In this document: positions 801-6,069 of the stretch, one piece after another
Position numbering within the stretch: the first letter of the stretch is position 1
Layout of the letters: each line of letters starts with the position of its first letter
Origin: a virus
Lineage: Duplodnaviria > Caudoviricetes
Strand: one strand, 5' to 3'
DNA length: 64,000 bases
Virus record (IMG/VR): IMGVR_UViG_2595698868_000001
Coordinates: 128,001-192,000 of that record
Translations under genes and position numbers: made by a program
Notes under the pieces: generated by a model
Database searches by the model: none
Seen by the model: only the letters and a program-made list of their open reading frames with translations
Told to the model about the DNA's origin: nothing

Positions 801-2620
801 TTTCCGTTGTTCATGGTGAGGATCGCACGCTTCCCGTTCTGATAGGTAATGACATGCGATTGCGACCAGGACGACAGGCCCTTGTTGTAGCCCATGTCCA
901 GCTTAGACGAGGTGCCCGAGGTATAGATGCCGTCGTGGATTTCGCACGAGTGGGTATGTCCAGTCGTCGCCTTCGGCCCCATCTTGGTGAAGGCTCGCGG
1001 ATTGCCACGGGCGCCGTTAGCGCCCAGGTGTCCGTGCATGCCCTTCTCGATGTCCAGGACCCGGAACGACTGATCTTCGCGAAGGAACTCGACGCCGGCG
1101 CAAGGCGTCTTTTCGAAGAACGTCGTCAGGACGTGGTTGAAGATCGAGAACTTCTTGGCCTTCTCGGCGATCTCGGGATCGCTGCTCTTCTTGTCGCGGA
1201 TCGCCTTGTAGGAGGCCAGTTGGCATTCCAGGAAAAAGATCGCGTTGGGAGGGTCTTGACGGTAGTCGGCTTCCTTGAGCCAGCGCTTCAGCGCCAGATC
1301 GTGGTTCGACTCGACGATCACCGTCTGGCAGAAGTCACGCTTCGTGTTGTCGATGAAGTAGGCGACCTCACGCAGTTCTTCTTCCACCAAGTCCACACCT
1401 TCGATGAACAACTCGAACATGTGGTGGGCGTCGCGGATGTTGTGGTGGTTGCGCGACTGGAAGTCGGCGACGTCGTGGAAGAACTGGTACTTAGGGCGCA
1501 GCACGTCAATCAGAGGCGTCTCCGCCAAACGTGACTCTCGCATGTCGATCCAGACGCGCGAGCCGTTCAGACCGACTTGCTCGGTCGGCGCGATACCGAA
1601 GCAGGTCTCGCTGACAACCGGGTCGATCTGTGCGACGTGCAGGTCGCCCCAATTCACCGCTTCGATGCGGTGACCGTGAGTGACCTCCGCGACGTTCTTG
1701 TACTCCAGGTAGTCGTCCGGGAACGACATACGCTCGTAGCTGCCGTCCGCGAAGGCTTCCCAATACCGGCTAGTCGCTTCGCGCTTCTCGGCGCGGCGCT
1801 CTTCGCGCTCTTCCTCGGTCAGCGGCGCCTTGTGCATCTCAACACGGGTGTCGAGGTCGTAGAAGGAGCCGTCGGCTTCGCCCAGGAGGTGACGACAGAA
1901 GAACGTACCGTCTGCCGCGATCTCGACCAGCACCGCGCCCAGGGCGTGGTGGAACGAAGCTTCGATGCCGGCGCGCATCGGAATGTAGTTAGGCTTGGTG
2001 ACCGCGCCGGTGGTCATGATGATCTTCGCCGGCTCGTGCTTCATGGTCGGCACGGACTTCAACTGCACCTTGGCGTGGGGAATGATGCCCCAGCGGTGGC
2101 GCGTGTAGGTCTCGAAGCCTTGAAGCGGCGACTTCGCGGTCGGACGCGTGTTCATCTCGCCGCAGAAGTCGATGCCGTCGCCCAGGCGGATGCGCTCCTG
2201 GACACGGTACTGGTTGATCCAGGGATGCCAGTACGGCACCTTCTTGGGATCGTTGTTACCGAAGAGGCGCTTGCTGTAGGTGAAGCCGGCGACGATCAGT
2301 TCGCAGGGGCCGAGCGCCTGAAGGCTGTCGCGGTAGGCTTCCAGCGCCGCCAGGAACTCGTAGTGGAGTTCGGTGCTCTCCTGGGCCGACGTCAGGATGA
2401 AGCGCGCCACCGGTTCGCTGATTTGGCGGACCGTGGTCGACGGCGCTGGGCGATGGGTGAAGCCGCCCTCGGCCGCCTTCGCCAGACGCAGTTGAAGGGT
2501 AGAGCGCGGCACGCCATACTTGCGAGAGAAGGCGCGCTGCCCGCCGATCTTGTTGACCAGTTCGGCCAGCTTGTCGGGGGTGACCGAATCAAGGTCGAAG
2601 GTCGGGGACTTAGCCGGCAT
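788..2620 (-). CDS. A1: T5 A1-like protein (N-terminal HTH + calcineurin-like metallophosphoesterase/nuclease domain)
   Basis: RFILTSAQ, WGDLH, QFFHDVADFQSRNHH, IVESNHDLAL, HGHLGANG, GHTHS, LDMGYN..SSWS motifs recalled from T5 A1. Confidence 0.88.
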   Translation of the reverse strand: MPAKSPTFDLDSVTPDKLAELVNKIGGQRAFSRKYGVPRSTLQLRLAKAAEGGFTHRPAPSTTVRQISEPVARFILTSAQESTELHYEFLAALEAYRDSLQALGPCELIVAGFTYSKRLFGNNDPKKVPYWHPWINQYRVQERIRLGDGIDFCGEMNTRPTAKSPLQGFETYTRHRWGIIPHAKVQLKSVPTMKHEPAKIIMTTGAVTKPNYIPMRAGIEASFHHALGAVLVEIAADGTFFCRHLLGEADGSFYDLDTRVEMHKAPLTEEEREERRAEKREATSRYWEAFADGSYERMSFPDDYLEYKNVAEVTHGHRIEAVNWGDLHVAQIDPVVSETCFGIAPTEQVGLNGSRVWIDMRESRLAETPLIDVLRPKYQFFHDVADFQSRNHHNIRDAHHMFELFIEGVDLVEEELREVAYFIDNTKRDFCQTVIVESNHDLALKRWLKEADYRQDPPNAIFFLECQLASYKAIRDKKSSDPEIAEKAKKFSIFNHVLTTFFEKTPCAGVEFLREDQSFRVLDIEKGMHGHLGANGARGNPRAFTKMGPKATTGHTHSCEIHDGIYTSGTSSKLDMGYNKGLSSWSQSHVITYQNGKRAILTMNNGKWRL

Positions 2621-3329
2621 AGAACATCTCAGCCTTGGCGTGGGGAAGCGTCTGAGCCTTCTGCCAGTCCCACACGTAGAACGCGTAGGAGAAGCGCGGG
2701 CTCGCGGACTTTTCGCCTTCCTTCTTCTCGACCCAGACCGGGCGGAAGCGCAGGGTGATCTTGGCGGCGAAGGCGGGGTGGTCGATCAGGTCGGCGCGCC
2801 CCTTGGCGGCGTCCCATTCGTGGCGCATCAGGAAGGCGACGTAGCCGTGCTGCGCTTCCATCAGTTCGAGGGCCTTGCGGACCGCGCGATCGGTATCCTT
2901 GCCGTAGGGCGGGTTGGAGATGATGCAGTCAGGCGTGAAGCCTAGCATCTCGGTGATCTCCGAGAACGGGCGCGGGCGGACCGGTGCAGGCTCGGCACCC
3001 AGCCAGACGCCGTCGTCGCCAGTGTTCTTGTCGATCAGACGCTCCCACGCAGCCAAGGCGCTGTCGAACGCCTCGCCATCCGGGTAGATGCTGAAAAAGT
3101 CGACCAGCCCATGGAGGTCCAGACCATCGTATTGGACGATGTCCGTGGCGCCGGCGGAACGGCAGTAATTCTTGATGATGTGGTAGATGGCACCGTTACC
3201 TGCGAACGGTTCCCAGAATTGCATCGCCTCCAGATCGTCCTCGACGACCGAGACGTACGCATTCGTCGCTCGGGCCGGGGTGGGATAATGATCAAGGGGA
3301 GCACGCGCGTAGTTCGTGCCGCCCAGCAT
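2610..3329 (-). CDS. amino (N6-A/N4-C) DNA methyltransferase
   Basis: DHYPTP, WEPFAGNG (motif I), IISNPPY (motif IV); start chosen at ATG 3329. Confidence 0.85.
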   Translation of the reverse strand: MLGGTNYARAPLDHYPTPARATNAYVSVVEDDLEAMQFWEPFAGNGAIYHIIKNYCRSAGATDIVQYDGLDLHGLVDFFSIYPDGEAFDSALAAWERLIDKNTGDDGVWLGAEPAPVRPRPFSEITEMLGFTPDCIISNPPYGKDTDRAVRKALELMEAQHGYVAFLMRHEWDAAKGRADLIDHPAFAAKITLRFRPVWVEKKEGEKSASPRFSYAFYVWDWQKAQTLPHAKAEMFYAG

Positions 3330-3674
3330 GGAAGGGTCCTTACGACCCGTGTCGGTGATAGCCATGCCGGGATAACTGGCATGGTTAACCGAAAGCGTCA
3401 AGAATCCTGGCATTTCTCTCCAGGCTTGACCGTTACGGCCCTTACGGATAGGGAATAATCAACCGAGGCGGGTCCACCACACCAACCGCGCGCCTCACGC
3501 TCTGCGCGCGAATTTGACCGTAACTCGAAGTGGCCGGACGCCTCAGGTGGAGGAGGCTAAGGCAATGGGCGAAGGACGGGTGCGGCGAGCGTATAATTGA
3601 GGCCGGCTGAAGTTAGCTGGGAATGTAGGTGTCCTGCCACCGTTCCCACGATGCGCGGAATCGACAGGTCCGTG

Positions 3675-3733
3675 TGACGCGAACGCCGGCCGAGAATAGA
3701 CGACAAGGCGTGACGCCCGGAGAGAGTGCCGGA
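3675..3733 (+). repeat. structured RNA motif copy 1 (TGACGCGAACGCC..GGCGTGAC + GAGAG hairpin)
   Basis: Direct repeat shared with 3900 and 4155. Confidence 0.8.
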
Positions 3734-3899
3734 CTTCTTGACACGAAGAACTAGATCGTAGACACCTTGGGCCGACTAGGGGACCTGGGGTGGTGCGAAT
3801 GGGCTTCCACCTACAGTCATCTGGCAGCCTCTGGGACCCCAGGCTGTCAGGCTCAACGGTGATGAGATGCCAACGGCTGGCTGGAATGCCGATATCACC

Positions 3900-3956
3900 T
3901 GACGCGAACGCCGGCCGAGACGATACGACCAGGGCGTGACGGGGGCCAGAGGCCTC
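3900..3956 (+). repeat. structured RNA motif copy 2
   Basis: TGACGCGAACGCCGGCCGAGACGATACGACCAGGGCGTGACGGGGGCCAGAGGCC. Confidence 0.85.
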
Positions 3957-4154
3957 AATCCATTACTTGACCGGCGCCGGGAGTTCTGGCATCCAGGCTG
4001 TGATGTCTCAGGAGCCTCCGTTCCTGAGGGACCTATTCAGGCGATCGTGACCGTCTCAAGGGTGCTGTCCTGCGAGAAGATCGTGAGCCCGCGTATGAGA
4101 CGTCATTTACGCGCGGGACACCCATGGTGGAAGGGAGCCGCTATGTGGCCCACC

Positions 4155-4208
4155 TGACGCGAACGCCGGCCGAAAAGTACGATCAGGCGTGACGGGGGCC
4201 AGAGGCCC
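4155..4208 (+). repeat. structured RNA motif copy 3
   Basis: TGACGCGAACGCCGGCCGAAAAGTACGATCAGGCGTGACGGGGGCCAGAGGCC. Confidence 0.85.
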
Positions 4209-4215
4209 TACACCT

Positions 4216-4302
4216 GCTACGGTGGACTGAGTGGTAAGGCGTGGGACTGCAAATCCCGCTGGCGAAAGCCTATCGTGGGTTCGATTCCCACTCGTAGCTC
4301 CA
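4216..4302 (+). tRNA. tRNA with GCA (Cys) anticodon and long variable arm
   Basis: Acceptor GCTACGG/TCGTAGC, U73, encoded CCA, anticodon arm GGGA-CTGCAAA-TCCC, T-arm GTGGG-TTCGATT-CCCAC. Confidence 0.88.
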
Positions 4303-4331
4303 AAATTCCTGACATTTTTCTGCCAGCCTGC

Positions 4332-4360
4332 TTGACAAGCCGAAAAGCGTCCGGTACACA
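4332..4360 (+). promoter_or_regulatory. sigma70-like promoter of tmRNA
   Basis: TTGACA at 4332 with a TACACA -10-like hexamer ~17 nt downstream. Confidence 0.55.
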
Positions 4361-4364
4361 CCTC

Positions 4365-4710
4365 TCATCGTCGTAATACGGCATACACGATTGGCGGCAA
4401 GACAGGGGTGCGATTCCCCTCGCCTCCACCAAGACCCCACCGGCCGGTGCTTCGGCGCCGCGATCTGCCCCAGCGACAGATCGAAATCTGAACGGTGCGG
4501 TGGGGTCCTGATGGGGGCGATCAGTTTCGATTGGCGCTGTGACTGGAAGACGCGACGTAGGGTGACCTCCTGGCTTAGGCTTCGGCCGAGGTAATTGGGT
4601 CAACGCTGACAAATGTCAACGACAACGACGCTCCCGTGATGGAGCAACTGCTGGCGGCCTAACGGCCTAAAGCGGCGCCCGGCGGGGGCGTGTCAACAGA
4701 ACCCCGCCAC
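4365..4710 (+). ncRNA. ssrA: two-piece (circularly permuted) tmRNA
   Basis: Acceptor piece ends T-arm + CGCCTCC-ACCA at 4431; intervening hairpin 4432-4512; coding piece starts GGGGGCG at 4513 (G3:U70 Ala determinant); tag ORF 4615-4662 VNDNDAPVMEQLLAA*; outer ends approximate. Confidence 0.92.
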
Positions 4711-4800
4711 CCTGCTTCCGCAGCCGGAGGCGACGACAACTAACGGCATGATCTGTCGGCAACCGATCAACCAGTTTTCGTCTCCGGCTTCGCAAGTAGG
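4711..4800 (+). ncRNA. ~90-nt long hairpin RNA of unknown family
   Basis: CCTGCTT/AAGTAGG and AGCCGGAGGCGA/TCGTCTCCGGCT pairings. Confidence 0.45.
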
Positions 4801-4891
4801 TTTGGGGAGTAGTCCTCCGAGGGATCGGAGTATAACGCTCTCCGGGGAGGCGCCTGGGACCATCCAGCCCAGACCGTCTCCCGAATTTTAT

Positions 4892-4954
4892 GCCGGGGAT
4901 AGGGTGGTCGCTCGCCCTAAACAGTTCGGGTAAGCTCCGACTGCCCCGGCTCCA
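4892..4954 (+). ncRNA. mini tRNA-like RNA ending in CCA
   Basis: Perfect 7-bp GCCGGGG/CCCCGGC stem + T + CCA enclosing only two hairpins. Confidence 0.5.
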
Positions 4955-4961
4955 AGTTTGA

Positions 4962-5038
4962 TGCGGGGTGGAGCAGTCCGGTAGCTCGTTTGGCTCATAA
5001 CCAAAAGGTCGAGGGTTCAAATCCCTCCCCCGCATCCA
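4962..5038 (+). tRNA. tRNA-Met (CAT), initiator-like body
   Basis: TGCGGGGTGGAGCAGTCCGGTAGCTCG..CTCATAA..GGTTCAAATCC..CCCCGCA-T-CCA. Confidence 0.92.
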
Positions 5039-5162
5039 CAAGCTGAAGCTCCGATGGCGGTCCTAGGCCGCAGCTTTACCCGGTCCCACGTCGGACAAGG
5101 CCGGGGTCTAGGTGGTGAGATATGATCGACGCCGGCGGAGCGCCAAGCCACCTTCCGCCACC

Positions 5163-5273
5163 AACGCCGTGTGCGTGACAAGCCTGGAGAGAACGGGCAC
5201 TCCAATCCGGGGTATGAGGCCGGATGTAGCGAACGCCAGCGAGATCGGCGTGACTGGTGGGGGAGAGGACCCA
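5163..5273 (+). repeat. structured RNA motif copies 4 and 5 (diverged)
   Basis: AACGC-CGTGT-GCGTGAC..GGAGAG hairpin (5163-5199); GCGAACGCC-AGCGAGATC-GGCGTGAC..GGAGAG hairpin (5229-5273). Confidence 0.6.
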
Positions 5274-5274
5274 C

Positions 5275-5374
5275 GCTGATTTCGATGAACGCATTCGGCG
5301 ATGTCGGCTTTCTCCATGGAGCCGCCGCCTGAGGCAGGAGCTACTGCCTCCGTCATGCGTTCTGCCAAATCAGC
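5275..5374 (+). ncRNA. ~100-nt branched RNA closed by a terminal stem
   Basis: GCTGATTT/AAATCAGC and GAACGCAT/ATGCGTTC stems enclosing two hairpins. Confidence 0.45.
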
Positions 5375-5536
5375 TTCGTCGCGGGGGTTCGATTCCCCAA
5401 GTTCGCGCCTCCTAGGGCGTAGGGCTGCATGGGACACCGACGGATAAACGGGAGTTGCCGGTTCGAGTCCGGCCTGGGCGGGGACTAGGAAACCCGGCCG
5501 GTGGAGGTAACTGGAGAACCTCGTCCGACCTATTTT

Positions 5537-5623
5537 GGTGTGGTGGCTCGACAGGTAAGGCGCCGGCCTCATAAGCCGGAGGGCGAAAGTCCTATGTAGG
5601 TTCGAATCCTACTCACACCTCCA
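5537..5623 (+). tRNA. tRNA with CAT anticodon (Met/Ile2) and long variable arm
   Basis: Acceptor GGTGTGG/TCACACC, U73, CCA; anticodon arm CCGGC-CTCATAA-GCCGG; variable arm GGGCGAAAGTCC; T-arm GTAGG-TTCGAAT-CCTAC. Confidence 0.88.
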
Positions 5624-5710
5624 ACTATGCGACGCCCCAGCGTCCGGACGACTCCCTGGCCGGTAACCACTCCGTCACAGGGACTCCCAGCCGGGGATAG
5701 CATGCCGAGG

Positions 5711-5749
5711 ACGGAAGGCGCACGCCGTGACTGCCGGGAGAGTACGGTA
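5711..5749 (+). repeat. structured RNA motif copy 6 (diverged)
   Basis: ACGG-AAGGCGCACG-CCGTGAC-TGCCG-GGAGAGTA-CGGTA; compensatory change in the central stem. Confidence 0.5.
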
Positions 5750-5820
5750 TCGAGTGAAAGCCGTGAGGCAGACCCTAGTGGCTCGACGGGGGACGTGAGG
5801 TGGAAGCCCTCACACCTTCC

Positions 5821-6069
5821 TCAATTGAACAGAAGCTGCTTGCTGTCGGGCCGGAACTGTACGCCGAGTTCGACCAGGATGCGCTTGATCGTGGCGTAGA
5901 AGTTCAACACCGCGCGGTGATCCGAGATGGATGCGCCTGTCACCAATGTGCGGGTCTTCCCCTCGTGCTGAACACGAATCTTGCAGTGCTTGTTGCGCTC
6001 GACCTCGAACGCCACATCGTGGTGCTTGAGGATGCGTTTCGCCATTTCTACGGTGTCTCGGCCAGCCAT
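5821..6069 (-). CDS. HicA-like (dsRBD-fold) small protein
   Basis: 82 aa from ATG 6069; NKHCKIR..TLVTGASISDHRAVLN pattern typical of phage HicA-like proteins. Confidence 0.55.
   Translation of the reverse strand: MAGRDTVEMAKRILKHHDVAFEVERNKHCKIRVQHEGKTRTLVTGASISDHRAVLNFYATIKRILVELGVQFRPDSKQLLFN

Follow-up and report, generated by a model that had tools for sequence, protein, structure and literature searches.

Which RNAs are encoded between positions 3426 and 4209 of the stretch studied here, and what might they do? The window, by which we mean the whole 64,000-nucleotide (64-kb) stretch of DNA analysed, comprises bases 128001-192000 of the virus record IMGVR_UViG_2595698868_000001 (279,967 bp; G000), and positions below are those of the window unless a genome or contig is named. 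Its first 20 kb show 89.2% identity to Caulobacter phage CcrPW over 99% of their length; CcrPW is a Colossusvirus of the Dolichocephalovirinae, and the window thus comes from a Colossusvirus-like Caulobacter jumbo phage. A first-pass annotation had described three tandem units at this locus, each with its own promoter, a unique 5′ body and a shared 3′ module. These units are very probably real non-coding RNA (ncRNA) genes that share a structured domain. The motif of this domain is not in Rfam, and it is widespread among tailed phages.

Architecture and coding potential of the three units

Exact copies of the 19-mer TGACGCGAACGCCGGCCGA lie on the plus strand at 3675, 3900 and 4155, where the module had been placed; a search of the 64 kb that tolerated three mismatches gave no others (chance expectation 0.14; none of 100 shuffles reached three matches). 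A repeat search of 3300-4800 returned only repeats derived from the module, at spacings of 225 and 255, so the bodies of the units are unrelated in sequence, as had been stated. Unit 1 starts with a promoter-like region on the plus strand (3426-3461; TTGACC, 17 nt, TAGGGA, then AATAAT), which lies outside the calls of an E. coli-type promoter scan, followed by a unique, non-coding body (3462-3674) that ends in a stem P1 (CGCGGA 3654-3659 : UCCGUG 3669-3674). In unit 2 a promoter-like region with CTTGACA (3738-3764) precedes a body at 3765-3899 with P1 GGUGAU 3858-3863 : AUCACC 3894-3899, and in unit 3 the corresponding parts are 3967-3995 (CTTGACC, 17 nt, CATCCA) and 3996-4154, with P1 GGUGG 4126-4130 : CCACC 4150-4154, all on the plus strand. 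The three stems are those quoted in the earlier description, and each closes directly before UGACGC.

The three units have TTGAC at 3426, 3738 and 3967, and a further TTGAC, at 4332, precedes a transfer-messenger RNA (tmRNA) gene. CTTGAC has 34 plus-strand occurrences in the window, four of them in 3425-4331. A scan of 3300-5900 for E. coli-type −35/−10 pairs yielded no promoter, and a terminator scan of the same region yielded no terminator-like site. The placement of CTTGAC, set against the empty promoter scan, suggests that the −35 hexamers are real and that the −10 elements are not consensus-like. The proposal that every unit has its own promoter therefore stands as far as the −35 hexamer, its constant position close behind the preceding module and its conservation in relatives are concerned, and it fails for a consensus-like −10 element. 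In comparison with CcrPW, TTGAC of unit 1 is kept and the substitutions fall in the spacer and the −10 region. We infer transcription from the CTTGAC sites, and the positions of the RNA ends, from the sequence; no RNA run was among the sequencing runs listed as containing it.

Coding potential is low, in line with the earlier statement that the segments hold no convincing open reading frame (ORF). The largest ORF in the unit region has 73 amino acids. Three single-base indels relative to CcrPW all lie in unit 1, and inside ORF 3936-4157 the 17 substitutions are spread 8/5/4 over codon positions 1/2/3 (hand count); the body of unit 3 likewise shows no third-position bias. A strong Shine-Dalgarno-like sequence, GGAGGAGG, is found in unit 1, 8 nt before an ORF of 11 codons (3540-3595). 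The stop codon of this ORF is lost in CcrPW, where it runs to 20 codons, so it is probably no conserved micro-ORF. No Rfam 15 family matched 3420-4215 even at E≤10, which agrees with the earlier failure to assign the units to a known family.

Structure and conservation of the module

The first-pass annotation had suggested building a covariance model from the copies and searching phages with it. Alignment A1, made of 34 copies from several phages with the three units included, was used to build the covariance model R1, and 72 R1 matches (71 distinct) from 50 sources make up alignment A2. The search thus found many copies, and one of the stems covaries. The module consensus is GA-[ACGCC..ACCA..GGCGU]-GAC-R-[5-bp stem P3, GAGAGA-type loop], about 60 nt in length, where the bracketed part holds stem P2. 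The three units, being part of the building set, score 53.3-61.5 bits with R1 (E ~1e-10 to 1e-12). Copy 1 (3675-3734, plus strand, 54.7 bits) has P2 at 3683-3687 : 3707-3711, GAC at 3712-3714 and P3 CCGG 3717-3720 : CCGG 3729-3732 with the loop AGAGAGUG. In copy 2 (3900-3958, plus strand, 53.3 bits) P2 lies at 3908-3912 : 3933-3937 and P3 is GGGGCC 3942-3947 : GGCCUC 3951-3956 with the loop AGA. Copy 3 (4155-4209, plus strand, 61.5 bits), with P2 at 4163-4167 : 4186-4190 and P3 at 4195-4200 : 4204-4209, ends 6 nt before a tRNA-Cys gene.

The module had been described for these three units. R1 has five matches in the window, which are also all of those in G000 (all within 131673-133750), and the module recurs in unrelated phages and prophages as described below. 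The fourth match is a short copy (5223-5273, plus strand; GCGAACGCC-AGCGAGAUC-GGCGUGAC, with P3 GUGGG/CCCAC and the loop GGAGAGGA; 39.2 bits, E 2.7e-7 to 6.2e-7) and the fifth a weak one (5701-5750, plus strand; GAA-GGC..GCC-GUGAC-U-GCCGG-GAGAGUA-CGGU; 21.5 bits, E 0.003-0.007). A degenerate module-like element was seen by eye only at 5163-5199 on the plus strand (AACGCC..GCGUGAC-A-GCCUG-GAGAGAA-CGGGC). It is below R1 detection at E≤0.01, and its counterpart in phage phiCbK does score (L002 5145-5203, 40.4 bits).

All five pairs of P3 change on both sides among the 72 matches of A2. The covariation score of this stem is 0.287 compared with 0.085 in shuffles, none of 500 shuffles reached that value, and slid controls stayed at or below 0.098. 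P2 is near-invariant, in large part because the search patterns demanded it, with C:G to U:A double changes in two sequences of A2; the same double change is seen between CcrBL10 and CcrRogue and in the second copy of contig L046. P1 of unit 1 differs from that of CcrPW by two changes that keep pairing (G:U to A:U and A:U to G:U). That P3, P2 and P1 change in a compensatory way while the loops stay conserved indicates selection on the folded single strand. The unpaired bases conserved in the module are G-A before P2, A-C-C-A on the 3′ side of the P2 loop, G-A-C-R, and G-A-G-A-G-A. The ACCA is conserved (A 45, C 40, C 29 and A 50 of 56-58 letters) and lies outside all search patterns. At least 20 positions of the 60-nt core are near-invariant.

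P1 was also considered as a family-wide feature and was rejected on stem length, which does not exceed that of shuffles across the whole family (5.83 versus 5.48 bp). It stands out solely by its fixed position in the units of Dolichocephalovirinae, where stems of differing sequence end exactly 6 nt before GAAC in eight of 13 full-unit rows.

The comparison with CcrPW gives a similar picture. The three modules differ at a single position (3697, in a loop) in about 175 nt, whereas the remaining ~590 nt of body and spacer hold 45 differences (42 substitutions and three indels). The unit region as a whole is 94.2% identical to CcrPW, as against 89.2% over 20 kb. By these signs the module behaves like a selected RNA domain.

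Units and recombination in related phages

Most of the Dolichocephalovirinae tested have R1 matches, and these are confined to RNA-gene islands: six in CcrPW, three each in phiCbK, BL57, CcrRogue and CcrBL10, two in Gurke and one in Bajun. Marchewka has three strong matches and two more weak ones elsewhere; CcrSC and RB23 have none. Units of promoter, body and module recur in the Brevundimonas phages and also in the unrelated contig L046. In CcrPW, the same three units as in the window are followed by a 197-aa ORF (gp415) and a fourth unit that abuts tRNA-Cys, while the window phage has neither this ORF nor the fourth unit. Window module 3 carries the P3 of the CcrPW fourth unit and is thus a chimera of CcrPW modules 3 and 4 (window 4186-4215 versus L001 3284-4165). 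The window phage therefore lacks ~870 bp through a crossover between two modules, and modules have served as a recombination site. The body type of the fourth unit (5′ GGCGCAGCAC, internal GGACUGC) is common to phiCbK, BL57, CcrRogue and Marchewka unit A. A conserved partner protein beside the units was considered and rejected, since CcrPW and Marchewka have unrelated ORFs between their units and tRNA-Cys (the two do not align at E≤100) and the ORFs by the units of CcrPW, Marchewka and Gurke contain no Pfam domain. In phiCbK the coding sequence (CDS) of gp290 (L002 2592-3164, minus strand), annotated as a hypothetical protein, overlies, on the opposite strand, a whole RNA unit with its module and is probably an annotation artefact; the present analysis corrects the phiCbK annotation.

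The recombination history bears on the proposal that the locus acts as DNA or as a regulatory region, either as stacked promoter/leader cassettes that boost the downstream tRNA-Cys, tmRNA and tRNA-Met or as a DNA-level repeat for protein binding or recombination. Four CTTGAC sites within 906 nt are all directed at tRNA and tmRNA genes, and the chimeric module 3 together with the ~870-bp difference from CcrPW shows that modules were recombination substrates. On the other hand, the compensatory stem changes described above speak for a folded single strand, every module copy is co-directional with the RNA or protein genes next to it, and the module is far better conserved than the promoter-proximal parts. 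We regard this proposal as the least probable of those weighed here.

The relatives also inform the earlier idea of guide or decoy RNAs, in which the variable bodies would be a payload (antisense guides, sponges or decoys against host or phage nucleic acids or proteins) on a common scaffold formed by the module. The modular build, with a unique 5′ part, a constant 3′ part and a promoter-like site per unit, suits this idea, as do bodies that are ~92% identical between two phages 89% identical overall, and the one body type kept from phiCbK to the Brevundimonas phages. Yet the bodies are no more complementary to other parts of the phage genome than expected by chance (best 28.2 bits versus a shuffled mean best of 29.5), which does not bear out the guide or decoy reading. 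The segments had been called hairpin-rich, and they prove to be no more so than their composition gives: the z-scores of minimum free energy against shuffles are +0.72, −0.13 and −0.71 for units 1, 2 and 3, none of them significant. In addition, many phages have near-bodiless modules (the second copy of L046, copies beside tRNAs and copies after capsid genes), and the conserved, “ancestral” body was deleted from the window phage between two modules. A payload role of the bodies is therefore very unlikely.

Module copies in other phages and prophages

Outside the Dolichocephalovirinae the module is found in many settings. A pattern made of the P2 words only hit at least 119 loci of IMG/VR, and 20 of the 119 listed carry the GAC-R hairpin with a GAGAG loop, which had not been part of the search. 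A three-word pattern hit at least 120 loci in bacterial genomes, and 42 of the 121 matches listed pass a P3 filter; some of these 42 still look coding, and the unambiguous copies come from prophage-like surroundings in many phyla. In a search for host-encoded copies, R1 gave one match in 151 alphaproteobacterial genomes under strict filters with 36 candidates per genome, a figure that is no estimate of prevalence. A subtype from small phages (L113:275-350) had no blastn match among 50,697 phage records, and complete phage genomes of 37-41 kb have one module copy each. No Rfam 15 family matches the motif in the units or in the 38 other loci scanned.

Several of these copies lie next to genes for abundant products. 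The major head protein gene is directly upstream in four of 17 scanned cases (G015, L193, L222 and L047), where the module begins 10-22 nt past the stop codon; in G005 it comes one small ORF further on. The other upstream genes scanned encode a terminase large subunit, a portal-like protein or unknown PHROGs, or had no match. tRNA or tRNA-like matches flank six of 38 scanned loci outside the Dolichocephalovirinae. In several phages, Dolichocephalovirinae included, the gap is short: the module lies 2 nt after a tRNA in phiCbK, 6 nt before tRNA-Cys in the window and CcrPW, 7 nt after a tRNA in L159, 10 nt before one in L113 and L047, and 6 nt before a tRNA-Sec-like match below the gathering threshold in L206. 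Tandem modules are present in L029, L047, L062, L081, L117, L175 and L206. Pistol ribozymes lie ~50-120 nt from module copies in two IMG/VR contigs (L046 582-648, 56.9 bits; L065 137-209, 44.2 bits), and the order in L046 is module, TTGAC, module, TTGAC, Pistol. The module is not simply a terminator, since a U-run follows P3 in only 12 of 63 modules and a canonical terminator lies within 90 nt in four of 63.

The module is widespread and often stands near-alone after a capsid gene or by a tRNA, so that its conserved core, and not a handle of the bodies, is likely to be the primary functional entity. Selection and portability are properties of this domain and not of the bodies. Of the family proposed by the first-pass annotation, the ncRNAs, the structured constant 3′ element and the variable 5′ parts are retained, whereas the constant part is better seen as the core than as a handle. 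Its places at the ends of abundant RNAs, in tRNA clusters and beside ribozymes would suit a module that helps to form, mark or protect RNA ends, either by way of a factor shared by many hosts or by chemistry of its own.

Possible role at RNA ends

Our preferred interpretation, which we put forward tentatively, is a new phage small-RNA family whose core may be a factor-recognised 3′-terminal domain for processing or stability, with the bodies as lineage-specific 5′ extensions. The three units would be separate ncRNA genes at the head of an RNA-gene island, each with CTTGAC as a promoter-like site, 135-215 nt of lineage-specific 5′ body, the local hairpin P1 and the ~60-nt conserved domain. This domain would form a compact 3′-terminal structure. 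A conserved factor of the host, or in some phages one of the phage itself, would bind it, possibly a ribonuclease or an RNA-binding protein, and the domain would mark and protect the 3′ ends of abundant phage RNAs. It may be freed from multi-gene transcripts along with tRNAs by the tRNA-processing enzymes, and in the window phage it may have been copied onto several new 5′ bodies to give a small multigene RNA family. Both the binding of a factor and the stabilising or processing role are thus proposed on grounds of conservation and placement.

Several points weigh against this interpretation. No E. coli-type promoter was called in front of the units. Bodies that fold no better than shuffles might be mere spacers. 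P1 does not exceed shuffles across the family. Part of the constancy of GAACGCCG and GGCGUGAC among the metagenomic and bacterial copies stems from the search patterns themselves. In L213, Marchewka unit D and phiCbK the module is followed by a canonical terminator, so a pure end-protection role would be partly redundant there. Finally, a plain stabiliser would need fewer invariant unpaired bases, and the pattern of such bases would equally fit a ribozyme or a specific ribonucleoprotein (RNP).

The module might be a new small self-cleaving ribozyme that cuts multi-gene phage transcripts at set positions, the units then being ribozyme-terminated RNAs. Short stems of free sequence (P1 and P3) surround invariant unpaired purines (GA, ACCA, GAC-R, GAGAGA), the copies are intergenic in phage late operons and tRNA clusters, they share one array with a Pistol ribozyme in L046 and L065, and the module is no canonical terminator. 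Against these features, the models of hammerhead, twister, twister-sister, pistol, hatchet, HDV (hepatitis delta virus)-like and hairpin ribozymes gave no match on the module in the window or the 38 other loci, the Pistol matches lying beside the module and never on it, and no conservation of a cleavage site can be named. Fits by eye to a K-turn, the hammerhead core and the hairpin-ribozyme loop A failed for some copies. A sarcin-ricin-loop mimic (GAGAGGACC, present in BL57 and in the copy at 5223) was dropped likewise, as was the idea that the GGAGAG loop acts as a Shine-Dalgarno sequence; by eye, neither holds for every copy. Most conserved motifs in the vicinity of ribozymes are not known to be self-cleaving. 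We consider a self-cleaving module rather improbable.

A bolder reading takes the 60-nt domain for a functional RNA in its own right and of a new class, in its boldest form a self-cleaving ribozyme and alternatively the core RNA of a new RNP. Tailed phages with many different hosts would then place the domain after capsid genes, between tRNAs and beside Pistol to cut or mark transcripts, and the Caulobacter and Brevundimonas jumbo phages would have multiplied it into a separately promoted array in an island with Ro60, Y-RNA, tmRNA and tRNA genes. The pattern of conserved bases is compatible with this, and we give it a similarly low probability.

If the proposed role at RNA ends is correct, tailed phages have a widespread structured RNA domain with an information-rich core that is named in no family catalogue. 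The module sits where phages control RNA ends, that is, past the major head gene, inside tRNA clusters and beside ribozymes, and it would give easily tested access to the ways in which the most abundant phage RNAs are processed or protected. Suitable test systems are the 60-nt RNA, Caulobacter phages that can be cultured, and C. vibrioides CB15 as a tractable host.

Relation to Ro60 and Y RNAs

G000 encodes a homologue of Ro60, a 469-aa ORF at 107098-108456 with 70% identity to a Brevundimonas protein (E 1.7e-194). The latter is annotated as “RNA-binding protein” and contains TROVE and vWA domains according to a Pfam scan. Three YrlA-like matches lie just upstream of the Ro60 gene (42.3, 30.5 and 29.9 bits; gathering score 69). 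This region, G000:107098-109447 (L020 1450-3850), is outside the window, and the units (G000 131426-132209) are ~23 kb from Ro60. A layout of Ro60 and YrlA is listed for a Caulobacter phage in Table S2 of Chen et al. 2014 (PMC4201824). In six of the seven Ro60-encoding Brevundimonas phages (Kikimora left out), the first module lies ~270-360 nt downstream of the Ro60 stop codon on the same strand.

These observations raise the possibility that the module is the protein-binding handle of a Ro60-type RNP and that the units represent a second class of Y RNA, one that is not tRNA-like (YrlB-like). Their partners would be the phage Ro60 and the YrlA RNAs, and they might tether a host exoribonuclease, for example PNPase. 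Apart from the Ro60 gene of G000 with its YrlA-like neighbours and the modules just downstream of Ro60 in the Brevundimonas phages, this is favoured by the arrays of three or four full units, which were seen solely in Ro60 encoders (G000, CcrPW and Marchewka/Domovoi), and by a CGAA in most module copies of Caulobacter and Brevundimonas phages. A CGAA motif is proposed for Ro60 recognition in section 6 of PMC4201824 and in PMC12135203, and the Y-RNA motif given in the former is GNCGAAN0-1G near the 5′ end, in or beside the stem formed by the 5′ and 3′ ends. In the three units, by contrast, CGAA stands ~55 nt from the 3′ end and the first G of the motif is a C. CGAA is not conserved across the family either: of the 72 members, 36 have G and 27 have C before GAA. 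The units show no YrlA or tRNA-like signal (RF02553) at E≤10, and in the window genome they lie far from Ro60. Moreover, a TROVE domain was found in none of 18 module-bearing IMG/VR records, three complete genomes included, and tblastn found Ro60 among the Dolichocephalovirinae solely in CcrPW and seven Brevundimonas phages, while the phiCbK-like phages, BL57, CcrRogue, CcrBL10 and Bajun have one to three modules and no Ro60 by tblastn. The last two results rule out a strict dependence of the module on Ro60. A link of the units to a Ro60-type RNP is thus unlikely, though it is worth keeping in view, and the units may show what the phage Ro60 system acts on.

Comparison with known systems

Y RNAs (YrlA, RF02553) with Ro60/Rsr, as described in PMC4201824 and PMC12135203, resemble the units in being small multi-copy ncRNAs beside tRNA-like RNAs, in adjoining the Ro60 gene in Brevundimonas phages and in having a CGAA-containing purine-rich junction beside a helix. 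The units differ from them by the absence of a tRNA-like domain, by a conserved element that lies at the 3′ end and outside any stem joining the 5′ and 3′ termini, and by the occurrence of this element in many phages without Ro60. GOLLD and ROOL (RF02032; Weinberg et al. 2017, PMC5737381) are likewise phage and prophage ncRNAs of unknown function beside tRNA genes, and GOLLD shares the islands of phiCbK, BL57 and Bajun with the module. They are single RNAs of 400-800 nt, whereas the module is a repeated 60-nt domain on different bodies, and neither matched in the window. The Pistol ribozyme (RF02679) and its relatives are similar in size class, in free-sequence stems around invariant unpaired bases and in a phage intergenic or tRNA-proximal setting, but the module matches no ribozyme model.

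Stabilising or processing hairpins at 3′ ends, such as the T7 RNase III sites, repetitive extragenic palindromic (REP) elements and the “Mu-gpT downstream element”, are found after highly expressed genes (the major head gene) and at RNA 3′ ends. These are simple long hairpins or have another consensus, whereas the module has a multi-helix core and also occurs in tRNA clusters. The tRNA cluster of phage T4 encodes the stable RNAs “species 1 and 2”, which are small, of unknown function, and co-encoded and co-processed with tRNAs.

As the first-pass annotation had noted, the locus is not CRISPR-like. CRISPR arrays have repeats of 23-50 nt and spacers of similar size and usually lie near cas genes, whereas the modules are 55-60 nt long and 165-196 nt apart, and no cas genes are annotated in the CcrPW counterpart. 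Nor do the units look like Hfq-type small RNAs with intrinsic terminators, whose GC-rich 3′ hairpin runs straight into a U-tract, given the absence of terminator-like sites in 3300-5900 and the few U-runs, or like type III toxin-antitoxin (ToxI-like) loci, in which short tandem repeats without gaps adjoin an endoribonuclease toxin gene, as the repeats here are non-contiguous (spacing 225 and 255) and no ORF in the region exceeds 73 aa. The ncRNA arrays of UG27 reverse transcriptases (RTs) in prophages (bioRxiv 10.64898/2026.09.22.753630) are also variable arrays of ncRNA units. They lie beside an RT and template cDNA, and their structure is conserved while their sequence is diverse; the module, on the contrary, has a conserved sequence core, and no RT is annotated near the CcrPW counterpart of the island. 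PMC10690425 lists thousands of candidate phage RNA structures without names, and the module may already be among them. No relevant paper was among the literature matches listed for the conserved words GGCGUGAC, GGCGTGAC and GAACGCCG, and nothing relevant was among those listed for non-coding RNA or RNA-seq of phiCbK.

Other features of the RNA-gene island

The three units sit between a minus-strand DNA methyltransferase ORF (2610-3413) and plus-strand RNA genes, and they open an RNA-gene island that continues with tRNA-Cys, a permuted tmRNA, two tRNA-Met genes and a YrlA-like element. The next RNA gene after the units is tRNA-Cys (GCA; 4216-4302, plus strand, 87 nt, long variable arm). A promoter-like CTTGACA and a permuted (two-piece) tmRNA gene follow on the same strand (4332-4662; tmRNA 4369-4662, RF04321, 83.8 bits), and then tRNA-Met (CAT; 4962-5038, plus strand), whose CcrPW counterpart is annotated as tRNA-fMet. 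The second tRNA-Met (CAT; 5537-5623, plus strand) has a long variable arm. Both it and tRNA-Cys are 87 nt long, and long variable arms are unusual for these identities. A weak YrlA-like (tRNA-like) element is found at 5433-5545 on the plus strand (RF02553, 23.1 bits with a gathering score of 69, E 0.018 in a 601-nt search). Around it, at 5380-5545, tRNA-like pieces lie between the two tRNA-Met genes, with the T-arm-like GGGGGUUCGAUUCCCC at ~5384-5399. phiCbK has a similar partial YrlA match (L002 5434-5501, 29.7 bits), and a Ro60 gene was not found in phiCbK-like phages. The island stretches 4712-4961 and 5276-5432, with no notable ORF and no RNA family match, may hold further RNAs.

The window has no GOLLD match, whereas GOLLD RNA (RF02032) is present in the RNA islands of phiCbK (L002 3575-4061, 165 bits), BL57 (L017 2266-2752, 170 bits) and Bajun (L018 2218-2636, minus strand, 104 bits). 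In these three islands GOLLD encloses an annotated “tRNA-Gly”. In the jumbo phages, the island that brings together Ro60, Y RNAs, tmRNA and tRNAs lies close to an RNA ligase gene.

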